A DNA stretch of 64,000 nucleotides from a virus (lineage: Duplodnaviria; Heunggongvirae; Uroviricota; Caudoviricetes; Schitoviridae): positions 12,205 through 76,204 of the IMG/VR virus record IMGVR_UViG_2228664000_000024, one strand, 5' to 3'. A model generated the notes under the pieces. The model was not told where the DNA came from, ran no database searches, and was given only the letters and a program-made list of their open reading frames with translations. This document shows, piece after piece, positions 1-51,817 of this stretch. The translations under genes and the position numbers were made by a program. How positions within the stretch are numbered: position 1 is the first letter of the stretch; the number at the start of each line of letters is the position of its first letter.

Positions 1-3000
1 GCCAATTCAGCGTAGGTAGTACGCATACGAGTCTGGATCTTAGAACCATCAGTTTTACCAGAAGCCAGAGCTTTAACAGTAAAGTCCATCAGGTCTTTGG
101 CTTTTACCACACCGTCTTTGTGGCTCATCAGGAAGCGTTCTAACGCGTTTTTCTGTTGAGTTGACACAATGGCAGGTTCAGAGTCGCTTGCCGCTTCCTC
201 AACTGCCTGACGGCGTTGAGCAGCGTCCAGCTTCTCATTCGCACGAGCTTGCTTAGTAGTACCAGCAGTTAACTGGCTTGCCAGTGTAGTACCCAGGGTT
301 TCAGCTTCAGCTACAGCTGAATCACGCTGAGAACGCAGCTTCTCAATCTTCTTGTCGAGAGCCTTACGGTCGGCAGCAGTAACCTGATATTCACCACCTT
401 CGTAACCATACTGGTTTACGTACTCGATCCCTTTCAGGGTTTCGAGTTTGGCGATTTCACGGTTATACGCATCACCGACTACTCGGCCCAATACGACACT
501 CGGATTAACAGGATCTTTGAAGTTACGATTGATACCAACTTTGAAAGCCAGTTGACGCAGTGAAGCAGCTACGTTCGTCCAGTCGGACGGCGTTAAGTTC
601 TGTTCAGTAGCATTCTCGCTAATGCCACGGAAAGAACGGATCATTGCTTCAGTGTTTGCCAACTGTGAGTCATAACCGGTAACCGTATCCCACATTGCCT
701 TGTTCTGCGAGCGAGCACCTTCCACCATGTCTTTAATACCGAACAGGTTAGCATCATGGAAGTTCTGTGCAGGACGCTCCGAGATAACACGAGTAGAGAT
801 AGCAGCATCAGTACCCTGAACAATCAACGCAGACGTAGATACACCCGGAGCAGCTTTGTCTTTGACTTGAGCACCGGAGGTATATGACGTAAACGTGTTG
901 TTCTTCGTCTGGCTTAAGCCAGTGTTTGCAGGATTAGCAGCGTCAGCAAAGAAGCCTTTTACTTCGGTAGCCGGGTTATTGGCATCGAAGGAGGTATTTG
1001 CTTTAGCAGCTACGTAGCCAGATTCCAGTTTATTACTGGAGATGGATCCTGTAGCACTGGTGACAATAGCACTGGAGTTACGCAGTTGTTCGTTAAGTTT
1101 AGCTTTCACGTTAGAGGACAAGCCTTCAACAGCTACGCCATTAACGGAACCCACTTGACCATCACGAACAGCCTGTACCAGAGCATTGGCTTCCACACGA
1201 TCAGTCAGCACTTTGTTTACTTCATACGCAGCGTTGGTGATCGCAGTATTGGTATCACGAGTTTCAATGTACTGAGCAGCTACCTGCTCAATTGCAGCCT
1301 CGGATGCCTCACCACGAGTAGCCATTTCCACTTGCATGATTGCAGCAGTTACATCACGCGGCAGTTCATACGACAGAAGGCTTTCTGTTTTGCCAATGCC
1401 TTTAAATGCGGGAGTTTTAATCCCTAGCGATTGGCCTTGGCGCAGTACGATCTGAATAGCTTTATCCAGACGGTTACGCAGCATATCCCCAGTTTCTTTG
1501 TCTTGACTGTAGGCTTTCGCAACATCAGCGATATGCGAGTAAATGCCATCAATGGCGTCACGAGCACTTGCTCGCTTGAGCGAGTCTAAGCCAGAGCCAT
1601 AGTTAAATGGGGTTGCCAGTACCTTGGCTTTCTTACGAGAGCCGAAGCCAGGAGATAAGTAATCAATCGCACGACGGAAGGCTTCATTCTGAGTGGTCGC
1701 CTTACCAGCAGGACGTGGGTACATCTGGTTCCAGAATGTATTCTGTGCTGCACCCAATAACTGGTAATAGTCCTGACCGCCTTTCTCACGGTACTGTGGC
1801 ACGTTGGTTACACCAGCGTCAGCAGTGTAGAGGCCACCACGAGCGAGGAGGTCATAGTCGGCTGTACCATAGAGAACGTTAGTAAGGATCGGGCCGTTGG
1901 TCACACCATCTGATTCACCGCCAATGGCTACTCGTACATTATCAGCACCTGCTTCACGAGCCATGTATTCCAGTGCCAGTGCATGTAATGACTGGAAGGA
2001 TTGTGGCCCCATGCCGAACTCTGCAACCATATCTTTTACGGTAGCAATGTCTTTGGCGTTTGCATCTTCGTTGATTAAACGAGACATAGCCTGAACTGCT
2101 TCACGGACGCGTGGAGTATTCAGGTAGTCTTGCATACCTTGAAGATACGTAGCTCCGGTAACTTTATCCACGGTAGGCATATCGCCACCATTTGGAGTCT
2201 TGATCGGGGCTTCTTCCATACCCTGTGCAACAGTAAGCAGGTATTGACCATATTCAGTGATATTCCCGGAGGCATCCATAGGAGCCTGGTTTAAAGGAAT
2301 ATCAGTCTGGTGGGCTTCCATACCTACCATGATACGGTGGATCTTATTACCTTGTGGGTTGAGCATATTGCTTGCTACACCAACACGGTTGTTTGACCAC
2401 ACTGCCAATGGCATGTAGATAGCCTGAGTCTGCCCCAGTTCATCACGGCCTAAGCCAGAGATGAATTCATTGGCATTCTCAAGAGCACGCAGTACGTCAG
2501 CATTCTTCGCTTCCTGACCGATACGGTCACGGTCGTGCATGAACGGAGTTTCAGCCTGAGTACGTACACCCATCATGTGGTGAAGTGCAGCCTCATCCAT
2601 ACCGGCAATTTTAGTCATGGTGTTAACCACAGACTCATTGATACGGTATGGCTGTTGCTGTGCTTTAGTCAGACGTTCAGCCAGTTCAGAAGGAACCTGC
2701 TGACCGAAATCACCAACAGTATTCTGAATGAACTTACCTGGCTTAGAAGTCAGTGGGGCAACCTTAGCAGCGTCAAAGCTAAATAGCTTAGACATAATGC
2801 CTTTAGTGCCTTTGTTGGCTTCTGTAATACGACCGATCACATCAGCAGGTACAAGCTTACCGTTAACTTCTTTACGTGGTACACGCACGAAGTTGAAGGT
2901 CACACGGGACTTATTAACAGGCTGTCCACCCAGGAAGTCACGGGAGAACTCAGCCAGTTTAGTCTGTGCTGCATCAGGCTCTAAACCAGATACCAGAATG

Positions 3001-6000
3001 TCGGCGTACTCACGGGCAGACATGGTGGTCTGTTCCAGATAGCCACGCTTCATCATGGTATGGAGAGCGTACATACCCAGAGCCTGCTGCATACGACCAG
3101 CACGGTTTGGATCCACATCTGGCAGGACTTTGAAGCCCAGCATCTGATATGCACGTTGACCCAGTGACTGTACTACAGCACGCTGGCTTGAACCGATTTC
3201 AGAGTAACGGTTAACCAGTTCGGTAGACACTTCGGATGAGTCAATATGGAACAGTGATGCCAGATCGTCACGAGTAGCGATCAGGTTATTACCATTCTCT
3301 GCAAGCCAGGAGAACATAGAGGCAGTCATTGCCGTCTTAGTGTTTTCGTCCAGTTGACCGTTTTCATTAACCAGATACTGAACAAAATCCTGATAACGGA
3401 AGTTAGCCAGGTCATTACCAGTTTTAGTTTTACCTTGTTTAACTTTGATAGCTGCATCAATATCACCAGCTACTTTGTTATGGAACTGGGTAAACATACC
3501 GATAAAGTTTTTCTGGGCAGCATCCATAGGAGTTGCCAGATAGCGGTTTACTTCAGTGAAGCGACCAGACCAATCAGCTTTTGAGATAACCCCGGACATA
3601 AAGTCAGGCACTGTAACCAGTGGGTTAACAAAGCCCTCCCGTACTTTCTGGATGAAACCAGTGAGTACAAGGTTTTGCTGTTCAAAAGGTTTGGCGAGTT
3701 CTTCAGTTCGTGCAGTCTCAAGGGATTTACCTTCAGGACGAAGCACAGAAACAGAGCCTTCAGCTTTGGTGTTTTCATCAGATTTAACCGCAGTAGTTTG
3801 ATCGGATACAACGTTAGCATCAGTCTCAGTAGTGCTTACCGGAGCAGGATCGACTTCATTGGTAGTAGCCAGATTTGGCTGTTCCTGTTGAGTCTGGGTT
3901 TCTGCGGGTGCAATACGTTCCTGCTGCTTAGCAGTACGGGTTTTCAGATCGTCAGAAGTACGACGGTTAGGACGGTCGATATTCTTCTGTTTCTGTTCAG
4001 TCGCTCCTGACTCCACTGCTGCCGGTTCCGGCTGCGCCTGCACCGTTGCAGTTGCATCAGTCGCTGGTGTAGTGGTTGGGGCAGGGGAGGACGGCTGCGT
4101 AGCGTTAGCGGTAGCAGTCGGACGAGCCTGACTCATTGCATCGAGTGCGCGAGAGGTTGCCTGAATAGCTTCTGCTTCCTGTTGGATACGGGAAACCAGG
4201 CCACCAGACTTAGCGTGGATATCCAGAGCACCATTCAGAGTTTTGGCTTTACCTTTCAGCTTCGCACCTGGGTTAATTACCCATTGGTTACCCTGACGGA
4301 TGATCTGACCATACTGTTGGTTATCCATCATCTGCTGAGCCAATGCAGCTTTCTGAGTATGAGACTGTTCAAAGCGAGCCAGTGAATCATGCAGGTTTGC
4401 TGCCAGGGTAGTGTTACCACTACGGATAGCATCAGCATACTGAGAGGTATAGTCACCCAGAGAACGGTAACCCTTACCACCCTGCATAATATCCTGGTTT
4501 ACAGTGAGATCAGATTTGAGGTTGTTTTGAGCAACTCGTGCATCAGCCAGAGCGCGTATAGCATCCCGTTGAGTCTCACTAAAACGGTTAGTTGTGTCAT
4601 CAGCCAGAGTTCTCAGTTGTTCCGGGGTGTACTGCATCGGATGAGTTACAACGTGATCAGCAGCAGTGTCTACCTGTTCCTGAGTAGCATCAGGATTAGT
4701 AGCAGTCTCTACTTGCTTTTCTACTTCGGATGGTGAGACTTTCTCACGAATACCAGCAGCAGTTTCAAACTGGCTGTAAGCATTACGGATACGCTCAGCA
4801 TTCTGAGTAGCAGCCTGATAACGTTCAACCAGAGAGTTCTGTTGTTCCTCGTTATAAGCACGAGAATCAATATCAGCGATACGCTGAGTGAACTGATCCA
4901 CAATAGCCTGTTTCTGTGGGCTATCTGGATACTGATCCAGTTCTGCAAGTTTCTCAGTCAATGCAGCACGCATTGCGTTGTCTTGCTGGATCTGCCCAAT
5001 TTCTTCACGTACTGAAGCCAGTTCAGCTTCTGCGTTATCACGTACTGTCTGAGCACGGTTAACAGCTTCGGCTTTAACTTCAGGCGTAGCATTGGCATCA
5101 GCCACTACATTGAGTTGCTGACGGATAGCGGCCTGTGGGTTGTAATCCACATGCTCAGGGTTAGTCAGATCCTCAAATGGCTTAGCAGCATCTTCAGCAG
5201 CTTTACGAGCTTCCGCAGCTTGTGGGTTAGCAGCTTCTGCACGTTCACGAGTAGCAGTACGAGCAGCATCAACACTACGTGCTACACCAGCACCGATGGT
5301 AGATGGGCCAGTCATTACGCCAGCAGACAGAGCACCAAGCACACCAGCATTGATATTACCCTCGGTATCCCAACGGTTATCACCGAGAAGGTTACGAGTT
5401 TCAATCTGGTTTTGAGCAGCTTCTGTCAGGCCATTGATAGCCATAGTGGTAGCAAGCTCACGTACAGGCTCTGCACCAAGAATGGACTTTGCTGCATTAG
5501 CAAGGCGAGATACGCCAGACCCAGCGATAGCCCTGGAAGCCGCTTGTCCGATGGCAGAGTCAGCCAGTGCTTCACCACCACGACGAAGTGGAGCAGTGAT
5601 AGCAAGGTTAGAAAGACCAGAAAGAGCGCGAGCATTGACGACGTTCTCCACAAAGTTCAAGCCAGAGTGCAAAGCATTCCACTGGCTAACATCGGCAATC
5701 TGTTCGTCAGTAGGTAACTGACCATCAGCTTGACCACGGATACCATCAATCTGGTTTTGTACTGCCTGACCTGCTGTACCCGCACCGATACCAATCGGGC
5801 CAAGTGCATAAGGCAGAGATTCAGCAGCAGACTGAACGACGAGAGAAGGATTCTGTAAGTATTCACCTACAGTGTTGAGGATCGCACCTGGGATAGAGAG
5901 GTTTTTATTTTCTTCTTCCAGTTGCTGAGCCAGACGCTGTGACTGTTCACGGTTAACCCAAGCATCGGTTCCCCATTCATTATCAACACCCTGGTTTGGA

Positions 6001-11924: not shown

Positions 11925-12485
11925 TTATGCGTTGTCGTCGGTAGCTCGACGTGCCAACTGCTGTGCTGCCAGCGCCTTCAGTTCTTCTTCAGTCAGCGGA
12001 GGCAGAACTTCGATGGTATACGCAGCAATTGACTTGGATTCACGAATTGGAATGCCGTGCTTACCTTTTTTAGTGGTGAACACCTGTACGCGTTTTTCAC
12101 GCAAAGCGTTAACCATAATCTGCGGTAAGTGCCACGGTTCATCCAGGTTATACGGGATGTACTTACGATAAGTACCGACGAAGGAGTTACCTACCGTTAT
12201 GTACTCACCAGGCCATTCTTTCTTGGCCGGGTCGTTACAGTGGATACGCACACGCACCAGTTTTGATGCTTCGGCTTTCTTACGACTACGACGAGCAGCA
12301 TCGTCTTCATCGGCAGCCGGACGGACTGTACCTGTGGACTGGTTTGCCAGCGTATTGTTTACACGCTCACGCAGGGTATCTACAGAGATAGAAGGATGGT
12401 ATTTAATTCCCAGAATATCAGCACGAGCTTTCAGGGATTCCAGTTCATCTACTTGGGGCAGATCATCATTATCGACTTGTGACAT
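11925..12485 (-). CDS. Structural/head protein, unknown function
   Basis: 186-aa ORF immediately downstream of the capsid gene on the minus strand. Confidence 0.4.
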   Translation of the reverse strand: MSQVDNDDLPQVDELESLKARADILGIKYHPSISVDTLRERVNNTLANQSTGTVRPAADEDDAARRSRKKAEASKLVRVRIHCNDPAKKEWPGEYITVGNSFVGTYRKYIPYNLDEPWHLPQIMVNALREKRVQVFTTKKGKHGIPIRESKSIAAYTIEVLPPLTEEELKALAAQQLARRATDDNA

Positions 12486-15332: not shown

Positions 15333-17567
15333 TTACTGGTTATTGCCAGCGTTGTTTCGTTGTGCTCTTAACTGATTACGCAAATCCAGGCTTGATTTAG
15401 CATGTTGCTGTAACAGATTCAGGTTATGAGAGAGACTCATCTTCTCTTGTTCACCCTGCTGATTCATAGCAAGCACAGCTAATTGATCGTCACCTTTCTG
15501 CTTAGCCAATTCCAGTTGCTGCTGGTGTTTAACCCCATTCTGCGTTTGCAGGAAGTCGAGGTTATTCTTATCAGCAGTAGACTGAATCTGTGCAGCACGA
15601 GCCTGTTCGACACCAACTTTAGTAGCATTGAGATCGCCTTTAGTACCCGCTTCACCAGCTTGAGAGAGCGTAAGCTGAATCTGTGCTTGGAGCAGTTGGA
15701 TCTGAAGCATCTGCATTTGCTGTTGCATTGGGTCAGGTTGAGGCTGGAAGTCCATAATCTGCTTACGCAGGTCAGGCATTTTACGCAGTCGTGCAATCTC
15801 ACCGAGGATAAGTTGCTTAAACCCAAAGTCGATATCGCCCATAGTCTGAAGCATAAATGCCAGGTCTTGTGCCTGTTGCTCATCTGCCTCAGCAGTGGAG
15901 ATAGTAACTTTAAGGTCAAACTCACCTTTCAGATCATCACGGCGTACTGGTACGAACTGGTCTTCAGTAACACGTACAACTTCTTCTTCATCAAGCCAGA
16001 CAGCATTCATGGCAATGACTTTACGGGCTACTTTAACCAAACCAGTAGAAAGACGGCGCAGAATACCCATCTCACGTTTGGACGCTGCATCCAATGCACC
16101 ACGTACAGCAGTAGCTGTATCACCCAGAGATGAACCGTCAATACCGGTAGTAGCAAACGCTTTAACACCAGTAAGGGATTCAGCATCTGAGTTCATCATA
16201 GCTACCATGAACTGAGCAGAGTTTGGGATCTCAGGGTATTGGTGAGTATAGATACCCGCCTGTGGGTTCATGCCTGGGTTGTATTCATAGTCTTCACCCT
16301 GCTGGAATCGTTTCTTGTTCGCAGCATCCAGCATATTCTTAGCGAACGCTGTCTGGGAGTTAGCAGACTTACCGAGCAGATCAATCATCCCACGGGTAAC
16401 AGCACCGACAATATCCTGGTTATCTTTCAGGAGTTCGGCATCAGGTTCACCGTATACAGATTTACGAACCGGCAGGTATTGAACCAGGACAAAAGGAAGC
16501 TCACGATCCGGGAATGGGTTCTCTTCCATTCGGATACAAACATCCCCTACCCATGTTGCTACAATCGGAGTAAGAGTACCACTACCGTCAATATCCCAAT
16601 ATCCCCAATACTCGTAAGCAACAATTCTTTTGCGTGATTCACCCGCTGGTTGAAAGTCCGGGGCAGTGTTGGGCTGAAAGTCTGGTGCTGATAAAGGCGA
16701 TTGATTAGAGACATTGATTTTCTCCAGATTTTTATAACGACCTTCAGCTTTAAGTTCAGCAAGTGAAGTCTCGAAGCTGTAGATAATAAAGTTAGCTTTA
16801 TTAAGGTCGCCGTTACATGACGGATCGATATACAGGTTAGCCAGACGGCACACTTCTACAGTCGGCTGGTTTTTAACAACCTTAACCTGCTCTACCATTT
16901 CAACGCCTGTCACTACAAAGCGGATAGGCTGTTGAGTCTGTTTAAATTGAGTATAACCGTCCTGTAACTCTTGAGGATAATTTAGGAGTTGTACTGGGTC
17001 TGACTGTTCGATCTGAGCCATCTGCTGATAGATCTGCACGACGCTATAGTCATAGACATAGGTGTAGACAGGCTGAGGTACAGTCTCAATGACTTCCTCA
17101 TAATCCCAACCAGTACGAAGAACAACCGTACCATCATCGACAGCAGCACGAACGTACTCATCGATTAAAGCTACACGGTCGATCTTATTAGTGAACTGCA
17201 TGTTCAGAATGAGTTCATTCTGTAACGCACCCTTCTTGTCTTCCCAGGTTACCGGGGTAACCTTGAATAGATCAGGGGTAGACAGGAATGGTTCAGACAG
17301 GGCGGAGTAGCGCCACTCAGCCTGTTTACGGACGAGTTTAGGCTGAACCTTTGATTGCCCTTTTTGCGCCTTTGGTGCTGCTTTGCCAGTACCGTTCTTG
17401 TAGTCAGCCCATTCAGTAACTTTCGTCATCTGTGTATCATGGGAAGACTTACAACTGTCCAGGTCTTGTTTAAGCAAAGCCAAACGTGGCTCCTGAACCC
17501 AGTCGGTAAGACGTGGCACCTCGACCCCCGGCAATACTTGAACATCATCTGGGGCAGAATTGTCCAT
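15333..17567 (-). CDS. Portal protein (candidate)
   Basis: 744-aa ORF; size and position upstream of scaffold/capsid; Q-rich C-terminus. Confidence 0.6.
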   Translation of the reverse strand: MDNSAPDDVQVLPGVEVPRLTDWVQEPRLALLKQDLDSCKSSHDTQMTKVTEWADYKNGTGKAAPKAQKGQSKVQPKLVRKQAEWRYSALSEPFLSTPDLFKVTPVTWEDKKGALQNELILNMQFTNKIDRVALIDEYVRAAVDDGTVVLRTGWDYEEVIETVPQPVYTYVYDYSVVQIYQQMAQIEQSDPVQLLNYPQELQDGYTQFKQTQQPIRFVVTGVEMVEQVKVVKNQPTVEVCRLANLYIDPSCNGDLNKANFIIYSFETSLAELKAEGRYKNLEKINVSNQSPLSAPDFQPNTAPDFQPAGESRKRIVAYEYWGYWDIDGSGTLTPIVATWVGDVCIRMEENPFPDRELPFVLVQYLPVRKSVYGEPDAELLKDNQDIVGAVTRGMIDLLGKSANSQTAFAKNMLDAANKKRFQQGEDYEYNPGMNPQAGIYTHQYPEIPNSAQFMVAMMNSDAESLTGVKAFATTGIDGSSLGDTATAVRGALDAASKREMGILRRLSTGLVKVARKVIAMNAVWLDEEEVVRVTEDQFVPVRRDDLKGEFDLKVTISTAEADEQQAQDLAFMLQTMGDIDFGFKQLILGEIARLRKMPDLRKQIMDFQPQPDPMQQQMQMLQIQLLQAQIQLTLSQAGEAGTKGDLNATKVGVEQARAAQIQSTADKNNLDFLQTQNGVKHQQQLELAKQKGDDQLAVLAMNQQGEQEKMSLSHNLNLLQQHAKSSLDLRNQLRAQRNNAGNNQ

Positions 17568-17637
17568 CGTGTCCTCTACTTATGGTGAAAATAACTTCAC
17601 CCATTATTGTCAAATAAACCAGAAAGGAAACCTTTCA

Positions 17638-18177
17638 ATGCAAACTACCTTTGAAAAAGTTGCTGCACTTAATCTCGCTTTCGGAAATGAAAAGGGCGAC
17701 TTAGCTAATCCTAACGTAAAAGCCTTAAGAAAGCAGGCAATGCTTTGCCTGGAAGAGGCTATTGAATTAGTTGAAGCAGCACACCCAGGCATGAAAGTTG
17801 TTTGGGATCTCAACGGTGATGCCGATGAAACCAGTGTTGATATGGTGGGCATCATGGATGCCCAGGGCGATCTCACTACTGTGAATGACGGTATAGCTCA
17901 TGTTGCTGGTTTCGACGGCAATGCCTGCTATGACCTGGTACATGAGTCTAACATGTCTAAGTTCATTGCTAGTGAAGAAGACAAAATTAAAGCTCTGGCT
18001 TACTACTACGAAATCGGCTTCCAACCAGATGACCTTTATCTACACGGTAATTACCCTACCATGTGCATAAAAGTTCGCCGGGATATCAAGCTGAACGGTA
18101 AGTTCTACCCTGAAGGAAAGTTCTTGAAAAACATGGTCACTTTTAAAGAACCAGATTTTTCTAATCTTTTACCGTAA
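17638..18177 (+). CDS. MazG-like all-alpha nucleoside triphosphate pyrophosphohydrolase (candidate)
   Basis: 180 aa from ATG 17638 (RBS GAAAGGAAA). EExxE-type motif LCLEEAIELVEAAH followed by conserved Asp residues. Confidence 0.45.
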   Translation: MQTTFEKVAALNLAFGNEKGDLANPNVKALRKQAMLCLEEAIELVEAAHPGMKVVWDLNGDADETSVDMVGIMDAQGDLTTVNDGIAHVAGFDGNACYDLVHESNMSKFIASEEDKIKALAYYYEIGFQPDDLYLHGNYPTMCIKVRRDIKLNGKFYPEGKFLKNMVTFKEPDFSNLLP

Positions 18178-18620: not shown

Positions 18621-18695
18621 GATGGGATAGCTAAACGGTGAAGCGGTAGACTGTTAATCTATGATAGCTGGGTTCGAGTCCCAGTCCCATCGCCA
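18621..18695 (+). tRNA. tRNA-Asn (anticodon GTT), CCA encoded
   Basis: Acceptor GATGGGA/TCCCATC. Anticodon loop CTGTTAA. T-arm CTGGGTTCGAGTCCCAG. Resembles E. coli tRNA-Asn. Confidence 0.85.
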
Positions 18696-18700
18696 AATTT

Positions 18701-18775
18701 GGTACTATAGTTCATCGGTTAGAATACTCCCCTGTCACGGGAGCGAGCCGGGTTCGATTCCCGGTAGTACCGCCA
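18701..18775 (+). tRNA. tRNA-Asp (anticodon GTC), CCA encoded
   Basis: Acceptor GGTACTA/TAGTACC. D-arm AGTTCATCGGTTAGAATAC. Anticodon loop CTGTCAC. T-loop TTCGATT. Confidence 0.85.
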
Positions 18776-18780
18776 AATAT

Positions 18781-18864
18781 GTGAGTGTGGCTGAACGGTT
18801 GAAAGCACCTGACTGTAAATCAGGCTCGAAAGACGTGGTGGTTCGAATCCATCCACTCACACCA
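18781..18864 (+). tRNA. tRNA-Tyr (anticodon GTA) with long variable arm, CCA encoded
   Basis: Acceptor GTGAGTG/CACTCAC. Anticodon loop CTGTAAA. Long variable arm. T-loop TTCGAAT. Confidence 0.8.
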
Positions 18865-18986
18865 AATTCTGAAGAGTGCCCATGTCTATTGGGGGATCAA
18901 CGGTGAGAAGCCGTGGTGTTCCTGCTGCAAGCCTTAAGTGGACAGAACAGCCAGCCTGGTGACGCAGGCAACTCTTCACCCTCTAT

Positions 18987-19061
18987 TGGGGTATAGCCAA
19001 GCGGTAAGGCAGGAGGCTTTGATCCTTCGATTCTCTGGTTCGAATCCAGATACCCCATCCA
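18987..19061 (+). tRNA. tRNA-Gln (anticodon TTG), U1-A72 pair as in E. coli tRNA-Gln, CCA encoded
   Basis: Starts TGGGGTAT as E. coli tRNA-Gln does. Anticodon loop CTTTGAT. T-arm TCTGGTTCGAATCCAGA. Confidence 0.8.
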
Positions 19062-44512: not shown

Positions 44513-46978
44513 ATGCAAGTCGCAACTCTCGATCATGGCTCGTCTGCAACCCTGGGTGCTGTAGCTGCACCACAAGCTGTATCCATTACTGGTGATATGT
44601 CACTCATTATGATGCTGACCACCAACCTGTATTCAAACCAGATGTTAGCAGCTATCCGTGAACCTCTGTGTAACGCGTGGGATGCCAACATCGAAGCTAG
44701 TACTACTGATCAGCCCCTGGTGATTAAAATCACCAAAGACGGTAACCTGATGATTCAGGATAGTGGTCTGGGTATCCCGGCGCACAAAATGAAAGACGTA
44801 TACGGTGTATACGGTCAGTCTACGAAGAAAGACAATGACGCCGTTACTGGTGGCTTTGGTCTGGGTAGTAAAGCTCCATGGGCTTTGGCTGACAGCTTCC
44901 GTGTTATATCTGAGTGTGATGGTATCAAGACCATCTACAACATGCCTAAGTCATGTGTAGAAAATGATGGTCTGCCCGGTATTCTGCCTGTGGCTACTAT
45001 GCCAACTGAACGTTCTGGCTTAACCCTGCTGATCCCAATCCCTGAAGACAAAATGGCTGAAGCAGTTGACTACGTTAAAGCCATTGTCTGTCACGGTGCA
45101 ATGAATGCGACCTTCGAGAACGAGATCATCGGTGAAGGCCCGTATCCAATGCCTGTGTTAGAAATGTCTGATGAGCCGGGTTCATATAACGTGGACTCTG
45201 TAAGCTGGTGGCGTGGTTACATGGGTGACCATACGATCTTTGTTCGTTATGGTGCTGTCATCTATCCGATGCTGCGTAACCCTAAAACTGACAAAGTGGC
45301 TGATGTACTCGAAGAATTCATGAGTATGGTAGGCTTCCGTCGTATGGTCGTTCAGGCCGCACCAGGTAGCCTGGCATTAACCCCAAGCCGTGAAGCCTTA
45401 TCATCGCATAAGATGACAGAGGATGGTCTTGTAGACCTTCTGACGGCATTGGTTAAACGTATCGAAGAAGACCTGATTGAACAGGTTCCGGGTAGCATTA
45501 AAGATGCGATCCGAAGACTGGAAACGGGTAACTACGATAACTTCGGTGAATCCACTTTAACTTCACGTCACAATGGTGAGTGTGCTATCCAGCCTCATGC
45601 TGTGCGTAAATATCTCCGTTCCAAACTCGGTAATGGTTTCCTTGCTAAGTATCAGCGTTTCCTGTATCACGCAGAAAACCGGGGATTCAAACTTAAGTAT
45701 CAGTTTGAAAACCAGACAGCAAGTAAACGCTATCATAAGCTACGCTCTATGTTCACTCAGAACTACAAACGTAAAGCTGGTCGCCGGGAAACCCTCCTGC
45801 AATTCTTCAATCACTTTGTGATGCGTCCGCTGGGTAAAGTGTTCACTGATAACCCAGATATGCACCCTAGTAACCTTCGCCTCAGTTTCCAGAATTACTG
45901 GAATGACCGTAAGGTAACCAAAGACGATTTCTACCATTCCACTGGTAGTGCTGAAGACTTTAAACGTCTTCAGCAGATGGTTGATAAAAAGGTTTATGTA
46001 TTTATCACCACACGTCTGGCCGGGGTAGCTAAAAGCATCAGCGATTGCCCTAACATTGGTCATACCGACCTGGCCTGGGTATATCGTGTAGATCCGAGGA
46101 AACGTAAAGAGATCTCCAACTATGTGAAGGCATTCGAAGATGCCGGATATACTGTAGTGGATCTAAGCCAGAACCATTCATGGGATTCAGTCGCACAGGA
46201 AGCTTTGCTTGCTGCCCGCACTAAACCCAAGAAGGCGAAGGAAGATAAACCACAGATTAAAAACATGTTGGCTACTCTGGTGAACTTCTACACTCCACGC
46301 CGTAAACGTAAGATGGAAATCGGTGAAATTGCTGTAGCCGAGAACCTAGCTTACGTAACGGATTCACCACTGTTCTATGTAGAACTGGATGAATTCCGTG
46401 AAGGTACTCTGGGGCGTTTTGTTCACGCACTGGATCTCACCGATGAAGAAATGCAATTCGGTGTGGTAGTGCGTAACGGTATTGAACGCCGTATGGCTGA
46501 AAACCGTGGTGCTGTCTCTGTGGATACTTACTTTGCTCCTAAGCTTATCGCTAAGCTGAAGACCAAAGCGTATGCCCGGTACGTTACCAAACAACGCCAG
46601 CCATCCATCAGTGAAGAGTTTGACGTTACTTCCAATGACCTTAAGCTATTCCGTACACTGGGTATTACCTTACCTGGTTTGGATAAACTTAAGTTCATCC
46701 CTGAACTGGAACGAGCACGGGAACGTGCAAGATCCTATCCAGGATCTCTGATGGCAACTATCGACGATCCCGTAGAACAAGACGCTGTTCAGGCTATTCT
46801 GGGCTTACGTTTCGAAGCTCCGGCATTCGTCAAGAAATTGGCAATCCTGAAAGACGACCCGATGTTGCGTCAGTTGAATATGCGTAACAACAGTCTGCTT
46901 GACTGGGTCGACCAATACCCAGAGCGTATTCCTGCTCTGAAATCCCTCGTTTTAAGCGCGCTCAAAAAACGGAACTAA
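44513..46978 (+). CDS. rIIA: rIIA-like protein with N-terminal GHKL (Bergerat-fold) ATPase-like domain
   Basis: N-box EPLCNAWDAN; G1 DSGLGIP; G2 GGFGLGSKAP; 821 aa; adjacent to an rIIB-like gene upstream of the DNA polymerase, as in N4. Confidence 0.5.
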   Translation: MQVATLDHGSSATLGAVAAPQAVSITGDMSLIMMLTTNLYSNQMLAAIREPLCNAWDANIEASTTDQPLVIKITKDGNLMIQDSGLGIPAHKMKDVYGVYGQSTKKDNDAVTGGFGLGSKAPWALADSFRVISECDGIKTIYNMPKSCVENDGLPGILPVATMPTERSGLTLLIPIPEDKMAEAVDYVKAIVCHGAMNATFENEIIGEGPYPMPVLEMSDEPGSYNVDSVSWWRGYMGDHTIFVRYGAVIYPMLRNPKTDKVADVLEEFMSMVGFRRMVVQAAPGSLALTPSREALSSHKMTEDGLVDLLTALVKRIEEDLIEQVPGSIKDAIRRLETGNYDNFGESTLTSRHNGECAIQPHAVRKYLRSKLGNGFLAKYQRFLYHAENRGFKLKYQFENQTASKRYHKLRSMFTQNYKRKAGRRETLLQFFNHFVMRPLGKVFTDNPDMHPSNLRLSFQNYWNDRKVTKDDFYHSTGSAEDFKRLQQMVDKKVYVFITTRLAGVAKSISDCPNIGHTDLAWVYRVDPRKRKEISNYVKAFEDAGYTVVDLSQNHSWDSVAQEALLAARTKPKKAKEDKPQIKNMLATLVNFYTPRRKRKMEIGEIAVAENLAYVTDSPLFYVELDEFREGTLGRFVHALDLTDEEMQFGVVVRNGIERRMAENRGAVSVDTYFAPKLIAKLKTKAYARYVTKQRQPSISEEFDVTSNDLKLFRTLGITLPGLDKLKFIPELERARERARSYPGSLMATIDDPVEQDAVQAILGLRFEAPAFVKKLAILKDDPMLRQLNMRNNSLLDWVDQYPERIPALKSLVLSALKKRN

Positions 46979-46981
46979 ACC

Positions 46982-49129
46982 ATGAAACAACAACTGATTA
47001 CTATCATTGCTTTGTCAGTAGATAGCAAGGTAGCTGTTCTCTATAAAGAGGACGGTTCTACCGTCACTATCCCACAAGGGGATGCTCGACTCCCTGTAAT
47101 CGTAGAGAAGGCCCGTGGGCCTCTCTCGTTAAATCCACCTCTTCCCGTTGAGGTTGATATCACCCCTATCTTTGCTCGTCGTGCAGAATTCGAAGACGCA
47201 GAAAAAGGTACTGGCGGTGTTATCAAATTCTTCCGCGTAGCGAAGAAATTCCTCACCGACCTGATCAACACTGAATCACCCGATAAGGTTGATGAAAGTG
47301 CTGCTCACATCAGCCCGCTGGAAATCGGTAAATTACCGTGGAAAGCTCCAGTTGATGTAGCACCAGCAGTTGATGTTAATGCTGCCATTGAAGAAATGGG
47401 GAATGATGGCTGGGAAGCCAGTGATGAACCAGAGATTCCCCTGGACACACCGGCTAAACCGCCTCAATCAGTGTTCATCGAAAAGCTGCCAAAAGACTAC
47501 AACAAAGTTGCAGTCATTAAAGCAGTGCGTGAAATCACTGGCCTGGGCTTACGTGAAGCCAAAGATCTGGTTGAGTCACCTCAACCGATTTTGGTACTCA
47601 CCAATGCCGATGAAGAGTCTGCCAGCGTAGCTGGTATGCTTCTGGATCGTGCGGGAGTACACGTAAAAATGAAACCAAGTGTGCCGGGCGAGAAGCTGTT
47701 TGCTCTTAGCAATGACCAGAAAGTTGAAGCTGCGCAAGAACGTATGCAGCAACTAATGGGCAATGCCAAAGACACCAGCGATCCTGAGTTTCACGCTCCG
47801 ATGAAGGAAGACGAAACCATTGTTGCAGTTCACACTGAAACAGGTGCAATCATCCCGGATGCTCACAAACTCGGCCACCAGCTTAAGGCTGCGTCGAAGC
47901 TTCAGAACTACACTGGTTTCACGAACTTTGTGGAACGTCTGTCGGCTATTATCGACCAGCGTGGTCACTCGGTTGAAGACCTGATGAAGTTCATCGAACA
48001 TGGCGATCTGCCAATTGCAGATGATGGTTGTATCATCATTTACAAACGTCTGAATCGCCAGGGTAAAGGTCTGTTTACCGATGTTCACTCCGGTAAAATC
48101 AAACAGAAAGTCGGCTCTTATGTATTCATGAAGCCAGGTCTGGTTGACCCTAGCCGTCGTCAGGACTGCTCCAACGGTCTGCACGTAGCTTCCCTATCGT
48201 ACCTGCGCCAATTCAGTGGTGATGCCACTGTAGTGGCTAAAGTTCGCCCGGAAGATGTGTTTGCTGTACCACAGTACAACACCAATAAAATGCGTGTTTG
48301 TGGTTATCACATTCTGGCTGAACTGGGTACGGAAGAACGTAACATCGTTAATGACGGTGGTTCTCTGTCCAGCACTGAAGTAGGCAAAGCGTTACTGAAC
48401 GACATTATCGCTGGACGCCATGTGCCAATCTCTCAGCTTGTTGAAGTGGGTGGGCATAATGGCAGCAACGTCACTTATACTGACGTTAAACCAGAAGATC
48501 TTGTGCAACCAGAAGTGTCTCAGCAAAGTGCTGTACACGAAACGCTGGATACCAAAGCTTCACTGGAACCCACTGTACCAGTAGCTGATGCTATTGAAGC
48601 TGACAAACTGAAACCGGTTAGCCCGGCTGAACCTGAAGCGAAAGCTGAAGCAGAGCCAGCCAAACCTGAAGAGGTTACTGAAGTGAAACGTGAAACCAAA
48701 GCACAGACTGCACAGCGCTTGTGGGCAGAGTATCGTACTCAGCCTTCTGCTGGTCGTCTGGAAGCCCTGGTGACCTTTAAAAAGGCATCCAAAAAGGGCT
48801 GGTCTGCACTGGGTATCGACGATGCTGCTGTTAAGCTGATCGAAGAAGAAACGGCCAAAGCTGCTGAGACTACCGTTAAGGTAAACAAAGTCTCTGGCTT
48901 TGAAGACGTTAAACCAGTAGCGAAAAAACAGCCTAAAGCACAGTCGTTCACCTCTCCGGTGAAAGGTACTGGGCCAAAGGCTAAAATGGCTGAATGCCTT
49001 AAAAATGGTGTTGATTCAATCAGCACTGCTCAGTTAGCCCTGCTTATTAAGAAGTCGGCTAAGAAATCCTGGGCTGCGTTAGGCGTTAGCGAAGATCTGG
49101 TTAAACAGATTGAAGACGCAACAAAGTAA
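46982..49129 (+). CDS. rIIB-like protein (715 aa) carrying an embedded ribosomal bL12 (L7/L12) C-terminal domain
   Basis: Residues about 160-230 (nt 47462-47670), [67 protein letters not shown], align with E. coli bL12 CTD ([36 protein letters not shown]...AGAEVEVK). rIIB call from position only. Confidence 0.5.
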
Positions 49130-49150: not shown

Positions 49151-49173
49151 GGCCACCTTCGGGTGGCCTTTTC
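49151..49173 (+). terminator. Intrinsic terminator GGCCACC-ttcg-GGTGGCC plus TTTTC
   Basis: UUCG tetraloop. Confidence 0.7.
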
Positions 49174-49206
49174 AATGTTTATCCACGAGAGAGGTCGGAT
49201 TTACAT

Positions 49207-51817
49207 GAGGCATATCATCTATGCTACGCGGGAAACCTATGAGACAGCGATCCTTATTAAAGAGGCGGCATTACTGCCATCTTCGATAGAACGCTTCTAT
49301 GTGGATCCCATGCACATGACTGGATACAACAAGGAAAATATTGTTGTATTCACTCTGGATTATCAACTCAACAACAAAGCTCCAGTAGGTCACTGCAAAG
49401 ACTATCTACTGAAATCCCTGTTACCTGCCCTTAAGAAGCTCAAGACGAAGTACGTTTACTGTGCTGACTCGAACTACTTTAAGGTACTCACCAAAAACAC
49501 CAAAGCAGATGCCCAACTGGGCTATGTGTTGCCTTGTGCTTTACCGGGTTATGAAGATTTACAAGTGATCCTGGGTATCAACTACCAGGCACTGACTTAT
49601 AACCCAAACCAGGAAGACAAGTTAAACCTGTCTATTCAGACGCTCACCAGCACGCTTGCAGGCTCTTATAAAGCTTTGGGTGAGGGTATCATCAAGTGGG
49701 CAGATTATCCTGTCACAGACCGGGAAATTGACGCTGCATTCGCACGTATCATGACCTGGCCTGAAGTGGCGATAGATACTGAAACTTTCAGTCTTCACCC
49801 GTTTAAAGCTGGCTTAGGCACTATCTCATTCTCCCCGGATACAACGGGTGGTATTGGGATGCGCTGTGACATGATCCAGCAGGATGGTGAAAACGTCAGG
49901 ATCTTCAACCCGTACTTCCGTCATAAGCTCCGTAAGTTCTTCGAAGCGTATAAAGGCAAAGTGGTGTATCACCACGGTGCTTACGATATCAAGGTGCTCA
50001 TCTACAACCTGTTTATGGCTGACCCGTTGGATAACGCTGGTCTGCTGGAAGGGTTAGAGGTGCTTACCCGGAATATCGACGATACAAAGCTGATTGCTTA
50101 TCTGGCTTTAAACAGCACCGCAGGTAACGAGTTAGGGCTGAAATCACTTGCTCACGAGTTTGCCGGTAACTGGGCGAAAGACGATATCAACAACATCATG
50201 GCTATCCCATTGATGGAACTTCTGCAATACAACGTAGTGGATACTATGTCCACCATGTATGTAAAACAGAAGTATTATCCGGTCATGGTGCGTGACGGTC
50301 AGAAGAAGATTTATCAGGAACAGTTCCTGCCAAGTCTGAAGACGATCATCCAGATTGAGTTGTCTGGTATGCCGCTTATACCTGAGAAGGTTAAAGCTGT
50401 CAGGAAGCAACTGGAAGCAGGTCTGGACGCAGCTATCCAGCTTATGCGTGGAACGAAAGCTGTGAAGGCAGCCGAACGTATCATCCAACAAAATGCGATG
50501 ATAGCGGCTAATGCCAAACTGAAGACCAAGCAGCATCCTATTGAGCATTTTGCTCATATGCAGCTTAACCCAGGCTCAAACCAGCAAGTAGCAATACTGC
50601 TGTATGAGGTGATGAAGCTTCCGGTCATTGAACGAACAAAGACAAAGCAACCTGCTACAGGTGCTGACGTTATTGAGAAACTGGCTAACCATGCGAAAAC
50701 AGAAGAAGCGAAAGCTCTGATGAAAGCACTGGTGGACTATAACAAAGTAGCCAAAATCCTCAGTTCGTTTATCCCGGCGTTCGAAGCCGCATTTGATAAG
50801 GGTAATGGTCGTGCGTATCTCCACGGTAGTTTCAACCTCGGTGGAACGTTATCCGGGCGATTAAGCTCATCAGATCCAAACCTGCAAAACCTGCCATCTG
50901 GTTCTCGCTTCGGTAAACTGGTCAAACAGTGCTTCTCTGCACCTGACGGATGGATATTCGCCGGGGCTGACTTTAACGCACTGGAAGACCGTATTAATGC
51001 CTTGCTCACCCAGGATCCGAATAAGATTAAAGTCTTTACGGATGGTTATGATCCTCACTCAATGCGTACCTACGCATACTGGCCGGAGAAGTTCGCACAC
51101 CTGCCAAACACAGTTGAGGGAATTAACCGAATCCAGGAAGAGTTCAAGGCTGAACGTGGTCAGTCCAAACCAGTATCGTTTGCTCTGCAATATCTGGGAA
51201 CCTGGCTTACTCTGGTGAAGAACTGTGGTTTCGAACCGGATGAAGCAAAGCGTATCGAAGCTAACTTCCACAAGCTGTACGAAGTATCAGGTAAGTGGGT
51301 TAAAGGTAAAATCGAACAGGCCACAAAAGATGGTTATGGTACAGGAGCCTTTGGCTTACGTATCCGTACACCTCTGTTGGCTAAATCGGTACTGGGTTCA
51401 AGTCGTACCATGCGAGAGGCAGAGGCCGAAGGCCGTAGCCTCGGCAATGCTGTCAGTGGTCAGTCTTATGGATTGCTCACCAACCGGGCTGTAAACGAGT
51501 TTATGGAACGTGTATGGGCATCGCCTTATCGTAACGACATAATCCCTGTAGCGTTGATTCATGACGCTATTTACGTGCTTATCCGTAACAACCCTGCTGC
51601 CGTTAAGTTTGCCAATGACAATCTTATTGAGTGTATGGCCTGGAAAGGTTTACCGGAGATCGCAGATCCCCGTGTACCGTTACCAGCCAACCTTGATTTG
51701 TATTGGCCTAACTGGGCTACTCCAATCACTCTGGATAACAACCTCAGCGAGGATGAGATCCGTCAGGCTGTGGCGAAAGAGCTTCAAGCCAGAAAGGAAA
51801 AAGCTAAGGCCGCATAA
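49207..51817 (+). CDS. DNA polymerase I (family A) with 3'-5' exonuclease domain
   Basis: Exo I AIDTETF; motif A DFNALEDRI; motif B RGQSKPVSFALQYLG; motif C HDAIYV; RBS GAGAGAGG. Confidence 0.85.

Follow-up and report, generated by a model that had tools for sequence, protein, structure and literature searches.

A 64,000-nucleotide (nt) stretch of an N4-like virus of the Schitoviridae (IMG/VR record IMGVR_UViG_2228664000_000024, positions 12,205 to 76,204; hereafter the window) encodes a 715-amino-acid (aa) homolog of the phage protein RIIB, and embedded in this protein is a ribosomal bL12 (L7/L12) C-terminal domain (CTD). The rIIB gene occupies nt 46982-49129 on the + strand. Residues 162-232 of its product (47465-47677, + strand) are a genuine bL12 CTD with the element order β1-α4-α5-β2-α6-β3, as identified by the Pfam family PF00542 and by superposition on the Escherichia coli structure 1CTF. 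Purifying selection maintains the module and is concentrated on its helix 4/5 face, the equivalent of the surface with which bL12 recruits translational GTPases. Comparison with related phages further indicates that the module is a long-standing, vertically inherited part of RIIB in a large N4-like branch of Enterobacterales phages.

Identity of the embedded domain

The original prediction for this stretch, made from the sequence without database searches, described a near-complete bL12 CTD within a rIIB-like protein, and both parts of that description are borne out. The Pfam search that it had proposed gives a significant match to PF00542 at aa 172-231 (E=3.7e-14), which spans profile positions 9-67 of 67 and, at 53.2 bits, exceeds the gathering cut-off of 25.9. 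Among PDB chains, phmmer finds the E. coli bL12 CTD (1CTF, 2BCW, 3J9Y) at E~1e-9. The full-length 715-aa protein was modeled with AlphaFold2 from 58 homologs, with a mean predicted local distance difference test (pLDDT) score of 74. In this model the module has pLDDT values of 76-90 and consists of strands at aa 162-168, 203-209 and 227-232 and helices at aa 175-186, 190-197 and 211-223. Foldseek superposes the module on 1CTF with a template modeling (TM) score of 0.91 and a root-mean-square deviation of 1.2 Å over 70 columns at 44% identity, and it is the sole part of the RIIB model that resembles any solved structure in this search. The ClpS N-degron adaptor, which shares the alpha/beta fold of the bL12 CTD, was considered as another identity and rejected: Foldseek gives it TM scores of 0.6-0.75, its identity is 11-19% versus 44% for bL12, the module has no ClpS match in Pfam, and profile comparison assigns it to bL12.

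The peptide that had been quoted for the domain is precisely what nt 47462-47670 encode. The quoted end at nt 47670 falls short, however, since the structural domain reaches nt 47677.

For comparison with the ribosomal protein, the E. coli sequence was taken from rplL of a RefSeq genome, and residues are numbered as in mature bL12. Identity to E. coli bL12 is 52% over the whole CTD and ~25% over its C-terminal half. The likeness is concentrated in the helix 4-loop-helix 5 block (aa 174-199; 47501-47578, + strand), where N174-S199 match E. coli N64-S89 at 23 of 26 residues. Within this block E. coli K65, V66, I69, K70, R73, L80 and E82, reportedly the residues that contact the factors, are all identical in the 715-aa protein. 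On the ribosome, helices 4 and 5 of bL12 provide a common, positively charged site for IF2, EF-Tu, EF-G and RF3, and the N-terminal domain (NTD) binds uL10 (PMC6753160). The CTD also contacts the uL11 NTD (PMC3505967). The identical blocks that had first drawn attention to the protein, EAKDLVES included, do correspond to helices 4 and 5 and so to this factor-recruiting surface (PMC6753160), and the surface is formed in the AlphaFold2 model. The accompanying claim of a position-by-position alignment does not hold strictly, as the alignment is shifted by one residue ahead of helix 4 and the phage sequence has one extra residue after helix 5 (ESPQP versus ESA-P).

Only the C-terminal part of bL12 is represented. 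The bL12 NTD (PF16320) has no Pfam match in the 715-aa protein, and a bacterial bL12 profile is matched only at positions 68-125, in RIIB and nowhere else in a six-frame translation of the window. Likewise, the NCBIfam bL12 equivalog TIGR00855 scores 41.4 bits, below its cut-off of 84.4. Because the uL10-binding NTD is absent, the module is not a ribosomal stalk subunit. A weak bL12-profile match in the open reading frame (ORF) at 17542-18174 (E 0.03-0.16) was inspected and rejected as noise.

A rIIB homolog next to rIIA

The carrier of the module, the 715-aa ORF of this N4-like (Schitoviridae) phage, is a rIIB homolog. It matches the PHROG family phrog_2886, 'RIIB lysis inhibitor', over its full length (E=6e-179). 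Five RIIB PHROG families match aa 305-452 (47894-48337, + strand), a universal RIIB core that is common to T4-type RIIB and has a ratio of nonsynonymous to synonymous substitution rates (dN/dS) of 0.031. In tblastn searches this core is found in 2,561 phage records, and T4-like RIIB aligns at aa ~301-448 with E~1e-11.

The position of the gene is also that of a rIIB. It lies immediately downstream of a rIIA homolog (44513-46978, + strand; 821 aa; PHROG phrog_2979 RIIA, E=1e-178), from which it is separated by 3 nt. A Dda-like helicase and an HNH endonuclease are encoded 5' of rIIA, and a family A DNA polymerase (Pfam, PHROG) 3' of rIIB. The resulting order, helicase-rIIA-rIIB-polA, is that of coliphage N4, whose gp33/gp34 stand at the same place in the replication module and whose gp34 RIIB is 35% identical to the 715-aa protein end-to-end. 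The nearest genomes are those of the Enterobacter phages vB_Ecl_SABI (SABI) and SonariX, at 88.7% nucleotide identity. A study of N4 by CRISPRi-ART found RIIA and RIIB to be dispensable on Rex-free E. coli and required when lambda RexAB is expressed (PMC11879866). The anti-RexAB activity of RIIB is thus known for N4, whereas the 715-aa protein is placed in this system by homology.

The neighboring rIIA product has sub-threshold matches to GHKL-type ATPases at aa ~28-140, namely to Pfam HATPase_c and to the NCBIfam models for HSP90, sacsin, Topo VI-B and the BbrUII restriction enzyme.

Loss and decay of the module in related phages

Not all RIIB proteins carry the module. In the sister lineages P0026-P0029, which are 65-69% identical to the 715-aa protein, the site holds only a low-complexity acidic spacer, and the same is true of many Klebsiella- and Burkholderiales-associated homologs. 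A profile built from phage domains with their conserved flanks gave spurious matches in such domain-less homologs, and a domain-only profile was used instead; it has no match in the spacer-bearing sister, Klebsiella- and Burkholderiales-associated RIIBs. Supposed remnants at aa ~121-154 of the ~616-aa RIIBs of Klebsiella phages were sub-threshold matches that vanish with the domain-only profile. These proteins are therefore truly without the module.

The situation in N4 itself is different. N4 gp34 aligns with the 715-aa protein through the module segment, and the domain-only phage profile matches it end-to-end at E~7e-5 in a small search; a profile made from distant clades only gives E 2e-5. 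Pfam finds no bL12 CTD in gp34, and against a purely bacterial bL12 profile the N4 segment is marginal (6 bits; hhalign P=0.005). At aa 155-221 of gp34 (L003:3986-6076), the orthologous position, stands the bL12-CTD-like segment HRIEVIHVIREISGRTSEYVNNLLAQPTPFKVF..., apparently without K70, L80, E82, A83, K84 and D85. Phage intermediates and positional orthology thus suggest that N4 gp34 probably carries a cryptic, degenerate copy of the bL12 CTD. Since the N4 rII system still counters RexAB while its copy is probably degenerate, an intact factor-binding face would not be needed for anti-RexAB activity. The bL12 module appears to be an accessory function of RIIB.

Proposed role of the module

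A joint reading of these data is somewhat better than an even bet: the module is an old, inherited bL12 CTD that would serve the rII system as a GTPase- or ribosome-binding accessory, the conserved face being what points to such binding. The anti-defence protein RIIB displays a folded bL12 CTD on a flexible acidic tether of ~45 residues. Most likely, the module would enable RIIA/RIIB to engage GTP-bound translational GTPases, or the ribosomal GTPase-associated centre in the uL11 region, and such binding would tie rII, as an anti-abortive-infection machinery, to the translation apparatus. Local recruitment, or avidity within a RIIA/RIIB oligomer, would be more plausible than bulk titration.

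Several points weigh against this accessory role. EF-Tu is extremely abundant and the isolated bL12 CTD reportedly binds factors weakly, so that bulk titration of EF-Tu is implausible. We infer GTPase binding by RIIB-embedded modules from their conserved face, and some of the conserved helix 4/5 residues also serve the fold, so that the conservation may be partly structural. The sisters without the module and the probably degenerate N4 copy suggest that it is dispensable for at least anti-lambda-Rex activity. As for its age, the domain tree by itself leaves phage monophyly unsettled, with 45% bootstrap support.

An alternative that is unlikely, but that draws on several features of the locus, is a repurposed helix 4/5 interface. 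It would now engage the GHKL-type ATPase RIIA, in the manner of an activator, or a host defence GTPase/NTPase, or take on a ClpS-like adaptor role. Such a change of partner would suit a module that sits inside an anti-defence protein, that is always adjacent to a rIIA with a GHKL ATPase-like N-terminus, and whose fold is shared with ClpS. However, the exact bL12 residues are kept although the flanks are only ~45% identical, which favors the ancestral class of partner, and the low identity to ClpS set beside that to bL12 speaks against the adaptor role. An obligatory role in activating RIIA is unlikely as well, because rIIA is equally present where RIIB lacks the module.

It is rather improbable that the RIIB-borne bL12 CTDs make RIIA/RIIB a 'pseudo-stalk', which would capture EF-Tu, EF-G, IF2 or RF3 or would dock on the GTPase centre of the ribosome. 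If this were true, the translation machinery would be directly connected with rII, a 70-year-old anti-abortive-infection system. The pseudo-stalk could then protect translational GTPases that are the target of a defence, or sustain phage translation while a Rex-like system collapses the membrane potential. In that case, the absence of such a defence in their hosts would account for the lost or decayed module of N4 and the Klebsiella P184-type phages.

Mimicry of the ribosomal stalk in the strict sense, in which RIIB enters or docks at the 50S GTPase-associated centre in place of bL12 and reprograms translation, is more doubtful still. The CTD-uL11 NTD contact is known (PMC3505967) and the residues for uL11 and factor contact are conserved in the module. 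Another phage bL12-domain protein has also been examined biochemically: one peptide of the 418-aa protein of phage FSL SP-076 was detected in high-salt 70S preparations, but the strep-tagged protein did not co-purify ribosomes (Mizuno et al., PMC6375957). Neither the 715-aa protein nor the window supplies the N-terminal dimerisation and uL10-binding domain of bL12, TIGR00855 stays below its cut-off, and the absence of that domain makes canonical stalk mimicry unlikely. By our own reasoning, one tethered CTD would also compete poorly with the four resident CTDs per ribosome. Finally, the sister lineages dispense with the module.

Selection on the factor-binding face

Purifying selection acts on the module and is focused on the helix 4/5 factor-binding face. 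Compared with SABI, the module has a dN/dS of 0.114 at a synonymous divergence (dS) of ~0.35-0.5. Over β1, helix 4 and helix 5 (aa 161-199), none of the 39 codons has an amino-acid change at a dS of 0.35; the C-terminal half of the module has a dN/dS of 0.228. A similar pattern is observed over longer distances among 19 non-redundant RIIB-embedded copies, counted in E. coli numbering. K70, R73, L80 and A83 are invariant, V66, I69 and D85 are each kept in 18/19 copies and E82 in 17/19, and position 65 is K or R in 18/19, while the remainder of the module drifts freely.

This pattern bears on the notion that the module is a functionless relic, a once-captured domain that now does no more than fill a variable linker with a folded spacer. 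Its location in the most variable part of RIIB would fit, as would its repeated loss or replacement by low-complexity spacers and its probable degeneration in N4. Relaxed drift would nevertheless be hard to reconcile with zero replacements in 39 codons and the low dN/dS of the module, when the adjacent tether differs from SABI at 20 of 30 aligned residues, or with surface residues such as K70 and R73 that are invariant over 19 divergent copies. A relic is accordingly very improbable.

Age and origin of the module

The high identity of the helix 4-5 block had been taken as a sign of relatively recent capture from a host rplL gene, and this part of the original prediction fails. Of the 120 closest RIIB homologs, about 35 have the module at this point of the linker, and some of these are only 42-52% identical overall. 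Its carriers also include cultured N4-like phages of Erwinia, Pectobacterium, Klebsiella (the KP8 group), Kosakonia and Escherichia (EK8). Across RIIBs, domain identity follows flank identity with r=0.92-0.93. Moreover, the extra residue that follows helix 5 (SPxP in place of SAP) is common to every phage copy and occurs in none of the bacterial sequences.

Phylogenetic analyses give a consistent, if less sharp, picture. In the tree of the RIIB core, the domain-bearing lineages are neighbors and four state changes suffice under parsimony. In a neighbor-joining tree of the domain itself, based on 69 columns, the split of phage from bacterial sequences has the 45% bootstrap value mentioned above, and a grouping of this clade with bacteria to the exclusion of the remaining phage copies has 0%. 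As this short tree does not resolve phage monophyly, the origin was judged on the indel, the insertion site and co-divergence. Domain identities are 0.47 between this clade and bacteria, 0.35 between this clade and other phage clades and 0.34 between those other clades and bacteria. These values are star-like, and this clade is therefore taken to be the slowest-evolving descendant of an old acquisition. For the RIIB-embedded copies as a whole, the comparative evidence favors one acquisition followed by losses or degeneration.

Base composition and codon usage agree with long residence. The GC content at third codon positions is 0.417 in the module and 0.429 elsewhere in rIIB, and the codon adaptation of the module deviates by less than 1 standard deviation. 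Of the 23 identical residues in the helix 4-5 block, 14 use the same codon as E. coli, compared with 10.9 +/- 2.3 expected from phage codon usage (P=0.12). The comparison of codon usage that had been suggested as a check thus finds the insert indistinguishable from the rest of rIIB, which argues against recent capture. The best cellular matches are bL12 proteins of Burkholderiales, at 56-59%, ahead of Enterobacterales at 52%; the phage motif is the generic REITGLGL, whereas enterobacterial bL12 has RGATGLGL. The sole blastn similarity to E. coli rplL covers 77 nt (~77% identity), all of them in the helix 4-5 block, and this match occurs in 5,421 genomes. A recent horizontal capture in which a host (Enterobacter or Escherichia) rplL gave up its CTD part could claim this match and the 23/26 identity of the block, but is extremely improbable in view of the modest identity of the whole domain and of its C-terminal half, the nearer Burkholderiales sequences, the background codon signal, the shared and co-diverging site, the phage-specific indel and the 0% bootstrap for this clade with bacteria. 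The striking identity is instead attributed to a universally conserved surface on which purifying selection is strong, and not to recent gene theft.

Relation to known bL12 and RIIB proteins

The presence of bL12 domains in phages is not new. Mizuno et al. (2019) (Nat Commun 10:752; PMC6375957) described them in seven cultured phages, six of which are N4-like, with the domains embedded in polypeptides of 'up to 724 aa' and with homologs that lack the domain. They also reported conserved EF-G/EF-Tu/uL11 contact residues and purifying selection in phage bL12 domains. One of their proteins, AHI60108 (724 aa) of Erwinia phage Ea9-2, follows a rIIA-like gene, is 44% identical to the 715-aa protein end-to-end and has the module at the same place; it is a rIIB ortholog. 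In that study AHI60108 was treated as a hypothetical protein and was not connected to rIIB or to anti-Rex activity. Its domain is also much less like bL12 than the copy of the present clade (~32% versus 52%). In addition, Mizuno et al. favored multiple independent acquisitions across phages, whereas the RIIB-embedded copies considered here favor one.

Database annotation has likewise recorded both identities. In the Pectobacterium phages phiA41/A38 the protein is named 'ribosomal L7/L12 C-terminal domain protein' in GenBank and 'RIIB lysis inhibitor' in RefSeq, and an nr protein with 90% identity is named 'ribosomal protein L7/L12 C-terminal domain protein'. The bL12-in-rIIB architecture is therefore already published (2019) and annotated in relatives. 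A full-text literature search found nothing that joins rIIB with L7/L12. What is added here is the explicit rII link for the bL12-bearing carrier, evidence that rIIB acquired the module once, long ago, and that losses and decay followed, probably including a cryptic N4 copy, and the assignment of selective constraint to the factor-binding half together with the rejection of recent capture.

The module resembles ribosomal bL12 in the fold of its CTD (TM 0.91) and in the helix 4/5 factor-binding residues. It differs in lacking the NTD and the rplJ-rplL operon context, in its position inside a 715-aa protein, in the one-residue insertion after helix 5, and in divergent, more hydrophobic β2 and α6 elements. 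Its carrier shares the homologous core at aa 305-452 and the adjacency to rIIA with the RIIB proteins of N4 and T4. T4 RIIB, which is ~312 aa long, is not known to have such an N-terminal extension.

Other phage bL12-like proteins, which mostly come from N4-like phages (PMC6375957), are stand-alone or embedded in other polypeptides. They include proteins of ~106 aa in the roseophages DSS3P2/DFL12phi1, of 98 aa in Ralstonia phage RSB3 and of 418 aa in Salmonella phages FSL SP-058/076. As in the RIIB module, the β1-helix 4-helix 5 core with GLGLxEAK is kept, but these proteins are encoded by other genes in other genomic contexts. For instance, the 418-aa protein of FSL SP-058 (L006:20064-21320) is encoded just downstream of a 10-tRNA cluster and keeps only β1-helix 4-helix 5; it has no homolog in the window. 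AGF88198 lies in the SP-058 record, and the FSL SP-058/SP-076 accessions are apparently swapped in Table 1 of PMC6375957.

The puzzle that these comparisons leave is why the anti-defence RIIB of one N4-like branch keeps, on a tether, a copy of the GTPase-recruiting domain of the ribosome in which the binding face is intact. The question of a connection between rII and translation factors is approachable through N4 genetics, CRISPRi-ART, the natural domain-less sister alleles and the probably degenerate N4 copy.

Architecture of the carrier protein and its surroundings

The module lies between an N-terminal domain and the helical body of RIIB. Residues 1-116 (46982-47329, + strand) form a conserved N-terminal module of N4-type RIIB with pLDDT values of 77-88 and a dN/dS of 0.057 against SABI. 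This segment is kept in all homologs with or without the bL12 module, is unrelated to the bL12 NTD and has no Pfam match. It is followed by an acidic, disordered tether rich in Pro, Ala and Glu (aa 117-161; 47330-47464, + strand), and pLDDT is below 50 for aa 106-156. Across the clade the tether is 34-45 aa long with a net charge of -6 to -9 (-3 in one member), and its sequence is hypervariable. A flexible acidic/Ala/Pro-rich stretch also presents the CTD in bL12, where it is the hinge. After the module, a short link leads to a conserved helical region and then to the RIIB core.

The tether shows a further peculiarity. Within aa 126-160 (47357-47461) synonymous sites are saturated relative to SABI, although the genes as a whole are 88.7% identical. 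Two tether 'alleles' circulate in the clade, one of them QSLQEMVDAEDEAG..., and this suggests recombination or very fast evolution with length and charge kept.

The C-terminus of RIIB carries two three-helix repeats (aa 573-629 and 665-714; 48698-49123, + strand) with the motif KKxAKKxWxALG. In the AlphaFold2 model their helices span aa 573-586, 590-603 and 614-629 in the first repeat and aa 665-672, 680-693 and 704-714 in the second. They are an internal duplication of a ~50-aa unit with a disordered basic spacer between the copies; KKxAKKxW(x)ALG is nearly invariant, as are K600, K605, W607, L610 and G611. The duplication is also present in N4 gp34, where the repeats cross-align in a second high-scoring segment pair, and no Pfam family matches. 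The repeats could be a membrane-, nucleic-acid- or RIIA-binding module.

At the left end of the window, positions 1-5100 have no complete ORF of at least 150 aa listed on either strand, which would be consistent with a very long gene, such as that for an N4-type virion RNA polymerase, leaving the window there. Four tRNA genes (Asn-GTT, Asp-GTC, Tyr-GTA and Gln-TTG) are clustered at 18621-19061 on the + strand. The listed start of the DNA polymerase ORF (49163-51817) is a GTG that lies 14 codons upstream of an ATG at nt 49205. The SABI ortholog is annotated with 870 aa, which equals 884-14, and the ATG is therefore probably the true start. Lastly, the SonariX record PQ898399.1 is 248,734 bp long and carries rIIA-rIIB at 207604-212207 with match statistics identical to those of the 76-kb N4-like phage SABI; this record may be a concatenated or mixed assembly.

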